Positions 58,706-62,798 are shown, counted from the stretch's first letter. The stretch: 64,000 bases of DNA from Bdellovibrio sp. ZAP7 (GCA_945900755.1 CAMDKS010000001.1:63491-127490), one strand, 5' to 3'. A program made the numbers and translations. Notes: generated by a model not told the origin, from the sequence alone.

Positions 58706-59457
58706 AGTAGTTGCCTTCCTTGGGGAATGTATTTTTTTGGCATGTCAGGTTTGAAAAACTTTGATTCACTTTGCACTAAATTAAAATAAAGAATATGTCG
58801 AACGGCAGCAAGGCCGTCTTTCCAAGTGATTTTTTTACCTTCCATGTAAGAACGCGGAAAATAACTAATGGGAACCTCCACCACGCGGACTTTTAGGCGA
58901 GCAATTTTTGCGGTTATCTCAGGCTCAAAGCCAAAGCGGTCGCTCTCAAGATTGATATTTTTGAGGATTTCAGACTTAAAAAATTTATAGCAGGTCTCCA
59001 TATCACTGAGATATAGGCCACTTAGAACATTACTCAAAATGGTGAGTATCCGATTGATTCCGTAATGAAACGTCCGGTGAACCTGAATCCCACTTTGCTT
59101 AAATCGGCTACCAAAGGCGACGTCCGCTTTTCCCTTTAGCATTGAATCAATGACAGCAGGGATATCGTCCAACGAGTATTCAAAATCAGCATCTTGCACG
59201 CCGATAATATCTCCCGTAGCGAGTTGAAACCCAAGTCGTAGGGCGGCCCCTTTGCCTTTGTTATTGGCTTGTCGCTCTAATATAACTTTTGATTGAAATT
59301 TAAATCGAGACAAAATCTCCCACGATTTGTCTTTGGAACAGTCGTCGACAAAAATTAGTTCTTTATCAACGGCCAACTCAAGTGCATCGAGCACCTTGAG
59401 AAAAGTCTCGAGGTGCTGACTTTCATTGTAAATTGGGACCACCAAACTTACTTTCAC
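58702..59457 (-). CDS. family-2 glycosyltransferase (polyprenyl-phosphate sugar transferase-like)
   Basis: 251-aa ORF with [14 protein letters not shown] and QDADFEY (DxD). Its stop overlaps the gmd start by 4 nt. Confidence 0.75.
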
Positions 59458-59508
59458 TGGGAATTTCCTTGCCGCTGGCTTAATATTTGCGGAGTTTAAT
59501 GTATACTA

Positions 59509-60621
59509 TTGCATTGGGATGAGTCCAATCCAATTTGCGCGTCTACAGGATGTCATATTCGGCTATTTCGTACGCTAGTTAGCTTCATGGTTAGGGTTTT
59601 TTGCAAACTATACGAGGTCTTGCTTAAAATTAATACACGCCTGCGCCGAGGACTTGAATCTGACCCCACAGTAATACTCATTGATCACCTAACCCCCGAG
59701 CAGGTCAAAGCTCAAGTAGCTATTGACGTTGGCCTAACTAGGCCGTTTACGGATGCGGGTGAATTATTAGTTTTAATTCCGTTTAGGGATCGTTGGGATC
59801 TTACTCAAACTTGCCTTTGTACGTTGGCGAGCCAAAAATTCAGTGACGGCGTGAAGGTTCGGGTGGTGCTGATTGATAATGGTTCTGTGAACCTAGAGAC
59901 TCGTGCAGGTCTTGGCGAAGTTACGAAAAATCACCCAACACTGAATATTCAAACGTTGCAGGCAAATTATGAGTTCAACTATAGTCGCCTTAACAACGAC
60001 GGCTATCGTCAATTTAAGACGCCTGAAACGAAATGGGCTTTATTTCTCAACAACGACGTTGAGTTGCTTGACCAAGCCATCTTGCAACGGATGGTCAGCG
60101 CTCTGGCGACGATACAGGATGTTGGCGCGGTCGGATGTACCTTGCTCTATCCTAATCGGCAAATTCAGCATTTATTCGCCGCTCCTGGAGTCAAAATCAT
60201 TGCCGCACACCCGACAAAAGGTGAGGCCTTTAGGCCGTCGATGGCTTGGTTTGCAAAATCTGTGCGCCCAGTCGCAGCCGTCACGGGGGCTGTGATGATG
60301 GTTAGGGCGAAAGATTTTGAGGCGGTAGGTTTAATGGACGAGGGCCTGCCAACGATGGGGCAAGATATTGATTTGTGTCTGAAGTTATTTTATGACCTAG
60401 GAAAATATTCGGCCGCGGTCACCTATTGCAACGTTATTCATTGCGAAAGTAAAACTAAAAATCATGATTTTTCGCATACAGAAATTCAGCGAATGACTGG
60501 CAAATGGGGCCCGAGGCTTTTAGCTCACCCATTTTATTCTAAGGCCTTTTCGCGATTTTCCGAGTCTCCATTACTTGTGATTGGTGCCGAGCCTAAATAC
60601 CCAGTCCAATGGATTTTGTAG
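59509..60621 (+). CDS. family-2 glycosyltransferase
   Basis: 370-aa ORF listed from TTG 59509; ATG 59587 is an alternative start. It shows VVLIDNGS, NNDVEL and a GT2-like core. Confidence 0.65.
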   Translation: MHWDESNPICASTGCHIRLFRTLVSFMVRVFCKLYEVLLKINTRLRRGLESDPTVILIDHLTPEQVKAQVAIDVGLTRPFTDAGELLVLIPFRDRWDLTQTCLCTLASQKFSDGVKVRVVLIDNGSVNLETRAGLGEVTKNHPTLNIQTLQANYEFNYSRLNNDGYRQFKTPETKWALFLNNDVELLDQAILQRMVSALATIQDVGAVGCTLLYPNRQIQHLFAAPGVKIIAAHPTKGEAFRPSMAWFAKSVRPVAAVTGAVMMVRAKDFEAVGLMDEGLPTMGQDIDLCLKLFYDLGKYSAAVTYCNVIHCESKTKNHDFSHTEIQRMTGKWGPRLLAHPFYSKAFSRFSESPLLVIGAEPKYPVQWIL

Positions 60622-60633
60622 AAGGAAGACTTG

Positions 60634-61998
60634 TTAGGGACTGACAGAAGGCGGAGTGTTGCAATTGGCTCCTAGTGGGGAGTGGTAGGTAAGGCCCCAC
60701 CCTGGGGGCTGGGTCGGAATAAAAACGTCAGTTGGGCAACCTGACTTCATTGACGATGCAAGCAACGGCGACAATTCATCCCAATAGGTTGCCGGTGCTG
60801 GTGGCAAGTGAATTCTTGGCCGTATTTTCATATCGTTTGGAGTTACCGGAAGCCAAACCGCCCAGATAAAAAACAATGCAGCCTTCGAAAGATTTTTGCC
60901 CCAAAGGCTAGTTGGCCGAATGAAAGCCATCCAAAAGATCACGCCGGCAGCAGTCATGGGAAACGAGTACCGGATTGTAGGGTCTATTGCGCATTCGATA
61001 AATGTCGCTAGAGAGCCCGGCCTCGCAATCCAGTTCAGTGCAGGCCAGCCAGCAATTCCGACTGTAAACAACAAGACAGCCGTCCAAGAATTTCGTTTGT
61101 CTCTAATAAAACACCATGCCAAAAACGCAAAGACTATGCATGGAACTAGCCACGGCCAGAGCGACGGTTGAAGCCATATCCAAAACGTATTTTGGCGCCA
61201 AATGCCCAGCCAAGGTGTAAGTAGGAGAAGTCTCGCAGAGTGCTCTGCAAGAAGGAACAGGCCTTTACCGATAAAACCGTCTGGAATTATTACAGCATCG
61301 TGATTGACGCCGTGCCGATTCAAAAAAATGAGCGTGATTAGTGATGCAACACAGATCACCAATAAATAAGCCTCTTTAGCCCGATTTTTCGTCAATTCGA
61401 CGTCTCGAAATACGCCATAGAGGCGCCAAGAAAAAAGAGGTAGTAGCAAGATTGACGTCCCAAGAGAGTTGCAAATTAATAGAACCATCGCCAGCTCACG
61501 CCATGTGATTGCTTGCTTTGGGTCTCTTAATCCTAAAAAAGCCATCCAAAACAGAAGCATCCAATTTAGATTTGCCAGGTTGCCGAGCATCTCTTCGTAA
61601 CCAGGCATCACGCAAAGCATGATCGCCACAAAAAATCGTGCCCCCACTGAAGGAATGATCCATGCGAGCCCCGGCCTTACGATCGAGGCAACACAAGCCG
61701 CAGTCATGGCAATACATAGCAGCGTCGTGACTGCGGGCCACGAACTGACGGGAGCCAGGGTGATGATAAGGTAGGCCAGTAAACGCTGAAGGACGTGAAA
61801 CGTGCCGGCGTAAATGTCTAGGATCGTCCAAAAGCCGCCTTTAAGCGCGTCGCCAAAATAGAGATTTGCATCCTCAGCCCAGAAATCGGCATAAGGCACG
61901 CGAACCCATCCGCGCCACAATAGCAGCGCAAAACAGGTGGCAAATGTGCCCCAATAGTTTAAAGAGGACGAGTCCTGAAAATATCTTTTAGAAGGCAC
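60634..61998 (-). CDS. polytopic membrane protein (putative glycan polymerase/GT-C-type transferase)
   Basis: 454-aa ORF that is very hydrophobic, with ~10 or more predicted TM segments by eye. The role is inferred from location in the glycan locus only. Confidence 0.45.
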   Translation of the reverse strand: MPSKRYFQDSSSLNYWGTFATCFALLLWRGWVRVPYADFWAEDANLYFGDALKGGFWTILDIYAGTFHVLQRLLAYLIITLAPVSSWPAVTTLLCIAMTAACVASIVRPGLAWIIPSVGARFFVAIMLCVMPGYEEMLGNLANLNWMLLFWMAFLGLRDPKQAITWRELAMVLLICNSLGTSILLLPLFSWRLYGVFRDVELTKNRAKEAYLLVICVASLITLIFLNRHGVNHDAVIIPDGFIGKGLFLLAEHSARLLLLTPWLGIWRQNTFWIWLQPSLWPWLVPCIVFAFLAWCFIRDKRNSWTAVLLFTVGIAGWPALNWIARPGSLATFIECAIDPTIRYSFPMTAAGVIFWMAFIRPTSLWGKNLSKAALFFIWAVWLPVTPNDMKIRPRIHLPPAPATYWDELSPLLASSMKSGCPTDVFIPTQPPGWGLTYHSPLGANCNTPPSVSP

Positions 61999-62057
61999 AT
62001 TATCTCCGAAGCGATAGGTAATACGACCCTAGCCTGTTTTCAATTACGATAATAAAA

Positions 62058-62372
62058 TCAATATACGGCAGCTATAGAGCATACCTCAACAAGATTTGTA
62101 GCTAGTGCTTGTTCGGCGTTCCCTGACTCTGCGTTGCTTGTCGCCGGAAAATGTTCATTTACCGGAACTCCACCACGCGGACTTTTAGGCGAGCAATTTT
62201 TTGCGGTTATCTCAGGCTCAAAGCCGAAGCGGTCACTCTCAAGATTGATATTTTTGAGGACGACAAAAATAAGTTCTTTATCAACGGCGAACTCAAGTGC
62301 ATCGAGCTCCTTGAGAAAAATCTCGAGGTGCTGACTTTCATTGTAAATTGGGACCACCAAACTTACTTTCAC
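62058..62372 (-). pseudogene. remnant copy of GT2 gene 58702-59457
   Basis: Its N-terminus [37 protein letters not shown] joins directly to [21 protein letters not shown]. An in-frame 378-nt deletion removes the catalytic core, and the tail diverges. Confidence 0.8.
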
Positions 62373-62798
62373 TGGGAAATTCCTTGCCGTTGGCGTAATA
62401 TTTGTGGTGTTTAATGTATACTATTGCATTGGGATGACTCCAATCCAATTTGCGCGTCTACAGGATGTCATATTAGGCTATTTCGGACGCTAGTTAGCTT
62501 CATGGTTAGAGTTTTTTGCAAACTATATGAGGCCTTGCTTAAAATTAACACACGCCTGCGCCGAGGACTTGAATCTGACCCCACATTAATACTCATTGAT
62601 CACCTAACCCCCGAGCAGGTCAAAGCACAGGCCGCAATTGACGTTGCCCTAACTAGGCCGTTTACGGATGCAGGCGAATTATTAGTTTTAATTCCGTTTC
62701 GCGATCGGTGGGACTTACTCAAACTTGCCTTCGCACCTTGGCGAGTCAACAATTCAATGACGGCGTGAAGGTTCGGGTGGTGCTGATTGATAATGGTT
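62140..62798. repeat. diverged duplicate of the divergent GT2 start region (source ~58850-59884)
   Basis: Hand alignment of 62356-62798 against 59441-59884 gives 30 mismatches plus one 1-nt gap over 444 nt. The left arm 62164-62260 matches 58871-58967. The deletion junction is at 62260/62261. Confidence 0.85.
62424..62768 (+). pseudogene. remnant copy of GT2 gene 59509-60621
   Basis: Its first ~98 codons parallel the 59509 gene. A 1-nt deletion (GGGATCTTACTC to GGGACTTACTC, ~62719) shifts the frame. Homology ends at ~62798. Confidence 0.8.

Follow-up and report, generated by a model that had tools for sequence, protein, structure and literature searches.

We analyzed a window of 64,000 nucleotides (nt) from Bdellovibrio sp. 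ZAP7 (GCA_945900755.1 CAMDKS010000001.1:63491-127490), read on one strand and numbered from its first letter, that ends within a predicted surface-glycan gene cluster. Here, two divergent genes for family-2 glycosyltransferases (GT2), namely GT2a on the minus strand and GT2b on the plus strand, share a short intergenic region. They are followed by the gene for a polytopic membrane protein (memb1) and, at the edge of the window, by another one (memb2). Between these two membrane-protein genes lies a second, damaged version of the divergent GT2 gene starts, which is the subject of this paper. We refer to the intact version as copy A, to the damaged one as copy B or the relic, and to the gene pieces within the latter as GT2a' and GT2b'.

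The cluster as a whole has two arms. The conserved "donor" arm consists of an RmlD-like gene, which forms its left end, an epimerase gene, the gene for a guanosine diphosphate (GDP)–mannose dehydratase (GMD), GT2a, and GT2b. The second arm varies among strains and is made up of alternative membrane glycosyltransferases that are GT-C-like on weak fold evidence (memb1 and memb2), or of a DUF2142 protein in relatives.

Anatomy of the repeat

An earlier note, made from the sequence alone, had described a diverged repeat at this place, and our self-comparison (repeat finding and pairwise blastn) recovers it as two collinear matches in direct orientation whose starts lie 3293 nt apart (Table 1). Overall, A and B are 94-96% identical, and copy B (62164-62798) ends abruptly on both sides. 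In segment 1, 94 of the 98 alignment columns are identical, the rest being two mismatches and two one-nucleotide gaps (E 6e-40). The longer segment 2 has 504 identical columns out of 539, with 34 mismatches and one single-nucleotide gap (E 0). Between these segments copy B lacks exactly 378 nt of the source, in frame, just as the note had said, and the missing part includes the region of the DD motif of GT2a.

Three indels of 1 nt add to the damage. Two of them shift the frame of the GT2a' fragment (a loss at 62167 and an additional T at 62197), and the third is a deletion equivalent to A 59799, between 62713 and 62714, that frameshifts GT2b', whose homology stops at 62798; this frameshift and this end point had likewise been read correctly. 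Copy B is homologous to intact GT2a and GT2b, yet it carries the large deletion as well as these three indels and is truncated at both ends; most likely, it has no coding function.

The left border, on the other hand, had to be moved. The copy had been placed from about 62140 (58850 in the source), but it starts at 62164, which is equivalent to 58871. The 66 nt in front of it (62098-62163, the orphan filler) show no significant similarity to copy A, and when they are aligned locally to the GT2a 3' end, 233 of 500 shuffled sequences reach their best score. A blastn-short search against all fetched loci and the rest of the window yielded chance 11-mers only.

Microhomology amounts to 0-1 nt at each of the three junctions, which we call J1 (62163/62164), J2 (62260/62261), where two GT2a' fragments are joined in frame, and J3 (62798/62799). 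No inverted repeats were found in 57500-64000, the listing of open reading frames (ORFs) left no transposase-sized ORF unaccounted for in 58700-64000, and the junction sequences are without duplications. With neither inverted repeats nor a transposase near the repeat, an origin mediated by an insertion sequence (IS) or transposon was rejected. Considering the minimal microhomology and the lack of IS ends, inverted repeats, and transposase, J1-J3 are illegitimate joins or deletions. A search of the window with Rfam yielded two tRNAs only, far off at 47.7-47.9 kb, so no RNA element is involved in the repeat.

Table 1. Coordinates of the repeat and of the genes around it. L004, L006, and L009 are contigs related to the window and P0121 is a homologous protein, all described in the text; aa, amino acids; dTDP, deoxythymidine diphosphate.
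Feature	Position	Strand	Remarks
Copy A, segment 1	58871..58967		GT2a codons ~164-196; blastn match to 62164-62260
Stretch absent from copy B	58968..59345		GT2a codons 38-163; blastn
Copy A, segment 2	59346..59884		GT2a codons 1-37, divergent intergenic/5' region, GT2b codons 1-125; blastn match to 62261-62798
Orphan filler at J1	62098..62163		66 nt; no detectable homology among fetched loci; identical in L009
Relic GT2a' fragment	62164..62260	-	equivalent to codons ~164-196; indels -1 at 62167, +1 at 62197
Relic GT2a' codons 1-37	62261..62372	-	in-frame join at J2; J2 identical in L009
Relic divergent intergenic region	62373..62423		51 nt; 5 substitutions relative to A
Relic GT2b' 5' part	62424..62798	+	125 codons; 1-nt deletion 62713/62714; truncated at J3
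RmlD-type dTDP-4-dehydrorhamnose reductase gene	55858..56766	-	Pfam RmlD_sub_bind 2e-89; TIGR01214 292.8 bits, cutoff 224
NAD-dependent sugar epimerase/reductase	56797..57732	-	Pfam Epimerase 5e-41
GDP-mannose 4,6-dehydratase (GMD)	57740..58705	-	Pfam GDP_Man_Dehyd 6e-133
GT2a, intact family-2 glycosyltransferase	58702..59457	-	251 aa; Pfam PF00535 4e-29
GT2b, intact family-2 glycosyltransferase	59509..60621	+	longest ORF 370 aa; Pfam PF13641 and PF00535
memb1, polytopic membrane protein	60634..61998	-	454 aa; GT-C-like on weak fold evidence
memb1 native upstream region	61999..62097	-	still collinear with L004 (blastn match ends at 62097)
memb2 native upstream region, L006-type	62804..62914	+	111 nt; 62804-64000 against L006 4726-5922, 97.3%
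memb2, polytopic membrane protein	62915..64000	+	first 362 codons of 560 aa; runs off the window; P0121 97% identical

A seam between two modules

Three related contigs (L004, L005, and L006), all from one sample (JGI 3300083096), carry parts of the cluster, and the relic is absent from each of them. L004 is collinear with the window over 56849-62097 (85.8%), that is, from the epimerase through GMD, GT2a, GT2b, and memb1 up to 99 nt upstream of memb1; beyond the equivalent of 62097 it continues with a different gene set. L005 is collinear over 55929-60606 (78.6%) and then goes on with a plus-strand DUF2142 membrane protein. L006 matches the memb2 end of the window, and upstream of that match it has a divergent GT2 of 257 amino acids (aa), a methyltransferase, and a DUF7657/DUF7654 protein. 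The earlier note had suggested comparing strains for alternative glycan modules; L004 and L006 carry other genes at the corresponding places. The order in the window is an L004-type module up to 62097, the 66 orphan nucleotides, relic B, 5 nt, and an L006-type module from 62804 onward. Relic B marks the seam between two alternative variable-arm modules of different ancestry.

The conserved arm is itself a mosaic. GT2a is 93-97% identical to L005 and only 74-92% to L004 (the window at 58871-58967 is even 100% identical to L005), whereas for GMD and the epimerase it is L004 that is closer (85-99%, against 58-86% for L005). The nearest relative switches sharply (58829-59460 compared with 56849-58800), which points to a recombination breakpoint near the border of GMD and GT2a. 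A scan of species-representative genomes with GT2b returned distant relatives only (26-41% identity), and a scan of metagenome contigs with an alignment of the GT2b N-terminus found one distant locus, in a collection that evidently does not hold the samples of L004-L006.

The relic in other datasets

An ORF of 104 aa that includes relic sequence (62058-62372, minus strand) is recorded in two contigs, one being L009 (ENA ERZ19569098, 673 bp). L009 is identical base for base to 62059-62320, including the orphan filler, J1, J2, and all B-type variants. Further to the right it is A-type at 13 of 13 discriminating sites (62379-62586), and the sequence after 62603 is unrelated. L009 may be a real product of gene conversion or recombination, or it may reflect an assembly switch across 58 nt that are identical in A and B. 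Its last 128 nt (past the 62603 equivalent) are AT-rich, TGAGATTTATATTAAAGTTAACTTTAAC..., and have no match in the window or any fetched locus; this tail could come from another strain in which the relic ends at a different right junction, or it could be chimeric.

Two assemblies from Logan, which assembles with k=31, bear on the other parts of the repeat. L011 (ERR14789929) is 98.3% identical to 60292-62103 and continues immediately with 62477-62532, where positions 62486 and 62528 have the B-type base. Compared with the window, it shows a further deletion of 373 nt (62104-62476) at a GCT microhomology. L010 (ERR3719165) matches 55767-58905 at 100% identity and breaks off exactly 31 nt past 58875, where A and B first differ; its end is the point at which a k=31 graph containing both copies would branch. 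For GT2a and the relic GT2b' ORFs of 114 and 88 aa, exact-protein look-ups gave no match. The extent of the relic thus varies, from none in L004, L005, and L006 through the same left part in L009 to the extra 373-nt deletion in L011. The adjacency of memb1 and the relic and the internal deletion are real, and the relic has been whittled down differently in different strains.

These contigs largely exclude the assembly artefact that the earlier note had named as its refutation. In such a case, strain-variant GT2a/GT2b reads would have been wrongly stitched downstream of memb1 in a metagenome-assembled contig, which we find hardly credible. The related contigs are metagenomic and the window probably stems from a metagenome-assembled genome (MAG), several related strains co-occur in one sample (L004, L005, and L006), J3 is seen in the window only, and L009 itself is possibly a chimera across the 58-nt stretch. 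Nevertheless, J1, J2, and J3 join nonhomologous sequences, which graph assemblers do not invent, and indels together with a 378-nt deletion are no features of strain collapse. Moreover, J1, J2, and the 66 orphan nucleotides recur in L009 without a single base changed, L011 joins DNA upstream of memb1 to B-type GT2b' sequence, and L010 ends at the k=31 branch point expected with both copies.

The relic compared with other alleles

The shared intergenic region had been given as 51 nt, which holds as a minimum but not as its full length. The DNA of the first ~35 GT2b codons (59509-59619; 62424-62534 in B) is interrupted by a stop in L005 and by a frameshift in L013, the latter an intact allele from a different metagenome. 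The real start should therefore lie further downstream, probably near codons 27-38 of the 370-aa ORF, and the control region should be longer than 51 nt. Across A, B, and L004, though, this stretch shows good conservation, and probably it does not code for protein but forms a conserved untranslated or regulatory 5' region (59509-59619).

To place copy B among its relatives, we had three outgroup alleles over 538 nt, which are themselves recombinant. In segment 2, A and B are 93.7% identical, B and L013 93.9%, and A and L013 92.6%, while L004 is 92.0% identical to B and 90.9% to A. A and B differ at 35 sites, with 11 private to B, 11 private to A, 12 for which both states occur in other strains, and 1 for which neither is seen elsewhere. 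Five of the shared-state differences form a run (59757-59793) in which A agrees with L005 and B with L004. By the private changes (11 vs 11), the branch leading to B is no longer than the one leading to A.

Third codon positions make up 20 of the 31 coding differences between A and B. Over the securely coding GT2b codons 38-125 (Nei-Gojobori), synonymous divergence (dS) between A and B is 0.21 and nonsynonymous divergence (dN) 0.037, yielding a dN/dS of 0.17. The corresponding values for B and L013 are 0.18, 0.029, and 0.16, so that B is closer to L013 than to A, and the dN/dS over all ten allele pairs ranges from 0.12 to 0.22. Since the A-B value lies within this range, GT2b' was under purifying selection, as working alleles are, for essentially the whole A-B divergence. 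Combined with the absence of excess private change, this suggests that the inactivation of B is recent relative to the split of the alleles. The comparison argues against B being a neutrally decaying copy of its neighbor A and for its being a distinct allele.

The earlier note had left open whether the repeat is the scar of a past duplication or of a module swap. Here, the swap gains support, as B lies between L004-type and L006-type modules, is as near to L013 as it is to A, and shares polymorphisms with other strains, next to the dN/dS of 0.17; a simple in-place duplication with neutral decay is disfavored.

Origin of the relic

We consider it probable (roughly 0.6) that B is the eroded remnant of a second, formerly functional divergent GT2a'-GT2b' pair of another allelic lineage, left behind by a one-sided cassette exchange. 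In the order of events that we infer, an incoming segment ending in GT2a-GT2b-memb1 would have recombined into a chromosome carrying GT2a'-GT2b' and, further on, memb2. One crossover would have taken place in the conserved arm by homology, while the other end would have been an illegitimate join inside GT2a' (J1, with its 66-nt filler), which amounts to one-sided homology-facilitated illegitimate recombination. The incoming module would thus have been added upstream, and the resident pair, minus the 3' end of GT2a', would have remained as a redundant relic. This relic would then have lost 378 nt (J2) and gained three 1-nt indels, and a further 373 nt would have disappeared in one strain. J3, beside the memb2 module, could have arisen later, by deletion, or be a join of older date.

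The visibly mosaic locus, with a GT2a that is L005-like and flanks that are closer to L004, counts for such an exchange. The conserved left arm could serve as the recombination anchor, and J1 is illegitimate, having the filler and 0-1 nt of microhomology. The identities, the 12 of 35 shared-state sites, and the dN/dS point to another lineage for B, judged against three recombinant outgroups only. Some observations weigh against this origin, however. With outgroups that are few (3) and recombinant, neither the private and shared calls nor the near-tie of B-L013 with A-B is statistically strong. A and B are also still among each other's closest relatives, for which reason the picture would be similar if a local duplication had happened long ago and A had since been replaced by another allele. 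No strain with an intact B-type GT2a'-GT2b' pair beside memb2 was found, so the ancestral state is hypothetical. As the exact-protein look-ups were empty, J3 is seen in the window alone, and this history does not account for the A-type right part of L009. Finally, homology-facilitated illegitimate recombination usually joins at short microhomology, and J1 has a 66-nt filler instead.

The old local duplication can be spelled out as an in-place tandem duplication of the 3.3-kb unit 58871-62163 by illegitimate sister-chromosome recombination, with J1 as the duplication join and most of the second unit deleted afterward. Foreign alleles would later have overwritten A (or B), through homologous replacement or gene conversion, and so produced the divergence now seen between the two. 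The direct orientation fits this origin, as do the start-to-start spacing of 3293 nt, which is one unit, and the single novel join that it would leave. GT2b is duplicated elsewhere in its family (P0004, see below), A is clearly mosaic, which makes overwriting by recombination plausible, and the B-left/A-right hybrid L009 fits unequal crossing-over or gene conversion between the copies. We nonetheless hold it to be unlikely. It takes more steps (the duplication, a large deletion ending exactly at the 97% L006-type module, and the allelic replacement), and owing to these steps and to the coincidental endpoint of the deletion at a module of foreign ancestry, it ranks below the exchange. Only 635 of the 3293 nt of the unit recur, the copy ends at unrelated L006-type DNA, and there is no trace of a second copy of memb1. 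This origin would have left GT2a' truncated at the start, and still the relic lasted through a dS of ~0.2. Furthermore, B is no closer to A than to L013, so the copies are not each other's closest relatives, and the dN/dS of 0.17 and the equal branches indicate that GT2b' was under selection during almost all of the divergence.

A possible present role

Whatever its origin, the relic could have been kept for the use of its control region. The earlier note had proposed that the duplicated promoter region may drive the downstream membrane-protein gene, whose start at 62915 is borne out by homology to P0121 and L006. More broadly, the divergent promoter and 5' region of the relic might drive memb2 on the plus strand and perhaps memb1 on the minus strand, which would be compatible with either origin. 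Of the native DNA upstream of memb2, only 111 nt remain, and these do not include the site that is most promoter-like in L006 (4589-4618). No terminator-like hairpin was found between 62424 and 62915, and a match to TTGCAA-18-TAAAAT is conserved in A (59601-59630) and B (62516-62545). The part of the relic that is left in L011 (62477-62532) overlaps this site, and the contig ends inside it. Even so, such a role seems rather improbable from the sequence. Promoter-like matches are no commoner than in shuffled sequence, and a promoter-like site in the intergenic region of A (59480-59507) is weakened in B by a T>G change in its first hexamer. The relic intergenic region is the most diverged part of the relic (5 of 51 nt), and the L011 strain has deleted 62104-62476, the intergenic region included. 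Besides, memb1 keeps its own upstream region, in which there is a promoter-like site on the minus strand (62089-62060).

Very improbable, in our opinion, is a more active role, in which the 635-nt A/B direct repeat would act as a recombination substrate that deletes or amplifies GT2b-memb1, thereby switching the GT-C-like transferase, with the relic's 5' region as the promoter of memb2. Were this so, the L009 hybrid would be the product of an exchange between A and B, and the locus would be a homology-driven switch for population-level glycan variation, derived from a displaced pair.

The cluster and its surroundings

The biochemical roles of the cluster genes are predicted from family matches and structural models. 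GT2a is probably of the polyprenyl-phosphate sugar synthase type, to go by its best NCBIfam matches (AglJ, ArnC, and PpgS, all polyprenyl-phosphate sugar synthases), which are all below the family cutoffs. GT2b, divergent from GT2a, has metagenomic homologs that are 84-87% identical (P0001-P0003). In another homolog (P0004, 538 aa, 54% identical), a full GT2b is preceded by a partial one (LIPFRDRWD...YPNRR) that is fused to it; this internal duplication indicates that GT2b was duplicated independently elsewhere.

For memb1 and memb2, no Pfam or NCBIfam family match was found, and structural models suggest, weakly, that both are GT-C-like membrane glycosyltransferases. The memb2 model has a predicted local distance difference test score (pLDDT) of 83 and a predicted template modeling score (pTM) of 0.89. 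Its significant matches in the PDB are all GT-C enzymes, namely ArnT (E 3.7e-4), AglB, STT3, ALG9, and AftB, though these fold matches are weak, with template modeling (TM) scores of 0.34-0.41 (Foldseek). For memb1 (pLDDT 77, pTM 0.82), the confident PDB matches are STT3, PglB, and AftA (E 0.014-0.05), again weak at TM 0.36-0.46. A comparison of memb1 homologs revealed an invariant E42 and D43 near the N-terminus. The idea that the membrane genes themselves are duplicated was dropped, as memb2 is homologous neither to memb1 nor to anything in L004/L005. A second memb1 paralog (P0150, 458 aa, 33% identical) is encoded ~9 kb further along on the same contig as L004 (L012, 10001-11377). It follows a divergent minus-strand gene of 285 aa, in a layout that mirrors the GT2(-)/memb2(+) order of L006. 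Taken together, we tentatively infer that the cluster makes a surface glycan derived from a GDP-6-deoxyhexose, for which the small GT2 would load polyprenyl phosphate and the alternative GT-C-like enzymes would use the resulting donor.

Two further features lie to the left of the cluster. A pair of 39-nt inverted repeats (54110-54148 and 55758-55796, 92% complementary) surrounds ~1.6 kb of small toxin-antitoxin-like ORFs at ~54431-54690 (Phd/YefM-like by eye), 54690-55121, and 55133-55462 (MqsA-like). Some 60 nt separate the right arm from the RmlD-like gene's stop, where the glycan cluster has its left border, and L010 ends inside this arm; the bracketed stretch may be a small mobile cassette. 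Just outside the cluster, the minus strand has two ORFs of 277 and 262 aa that overlap (52326-53944). The latter of them weakly matches the AbiEi antitoxin (E 8e-4, far below the family cutoff), and the two may form an AbiE-like toxin-antitoxin or abortive-infection pair.

Significance

No new kind of system is revealed here. Rather, the locus shows by example, and at the level of single bases, how uncultured bacteria of the environment rebuild their surface-glycan clusters. The conserved sugar-activation arm would serve as the recombination anchor and the alternative GT-C-like transferases as exchangeable cargo, with a displaced pair caught during its deletion. For annotation, the ORFs of 104 and 114 aa at 62058-62768 should be treated as pseudogene fragments. 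Users of MAGs may take from it that an apparent "duplication" can be a real strain-level scar and not a misassembly.

Comparison with known systems

A close counterpart is found in Yersinia pseudotuberculosis, where the Abe (S2) module keeps a remnant of tyv, and for the exchange the authors propose that one end lay in homologous DNA while the other fell within tyv (PMC5399914). In both cases, a surface-polysaccharide cluster combines conserved with variable parts, and the exchanged module is bordered by the truncated remnant of a sugar-pathway or transferase gene. The remnant described here, by contrast, is a divergent pair of gene starts with their shared control region, and its intact homologs are only 3.3 kb away in direct orientation, so that the scar looks like a duplication. 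Moreover, there is no IS element here, and the glycan is uncharacterized.

A comparable process is known from Vibrio cholerae, whose type VI secretion system (T6SS) effector-immunity modules have been displaced sequentially, by a mechanism that the authors liken to homology-facilitated illegitimate recombination; orphan 3' ends of Rhs and contact-dependent inhibition (CDI) genes are likewise attributed to it (PMC5361080). The resemblance lies in an incoming module that has its anchor in a conserved region upstream and an illegitimate join at its downstream end, the residents being pushed back as orphans or fragments. The immunity orphans of V. cholerae, however, are functional and selected, whereas both displaced genes are broken here and the relic has been deleted further (L011).

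The relic also recalls a tandem segmental duplication followed by pseudogene decay, as it forms a direct repeat one unit apart with a single novel join. It differs in that neither copy is clearly the closest relative of the other, most of the divergence between them is synonymous, and DNA of other ancestry begins where the second unit ends.

As to gene function, not the repeat, the gtr-type sets (gtrABC of Salmonella and Shigella) come to mind, in which a GT2 polyprenyl-phosphate sugar synthase is combined with a serotype-specific polytopic membrane transferase. Here, too, a small GT2 (GT2a) goes together with polytopic membrane transferases whose alternatives are strain-specific. The cluster showed no GtrA-like flippase gene, however, and the set is located within a GDP-sugar cluster instead of being phage-borne; the GT2a matches are below the family cutoffs and the fold matches of the membrane proteins are weak (TM 0.34-0.46). 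Gene remnants and module seams are already well described in polysaccharide loci, and the present relic is a new and well-resolved instance of them. It is slightly unusual in that the scar comprises a whole pair of divergent gene starts, 3.3 kb from its intact counterpart.

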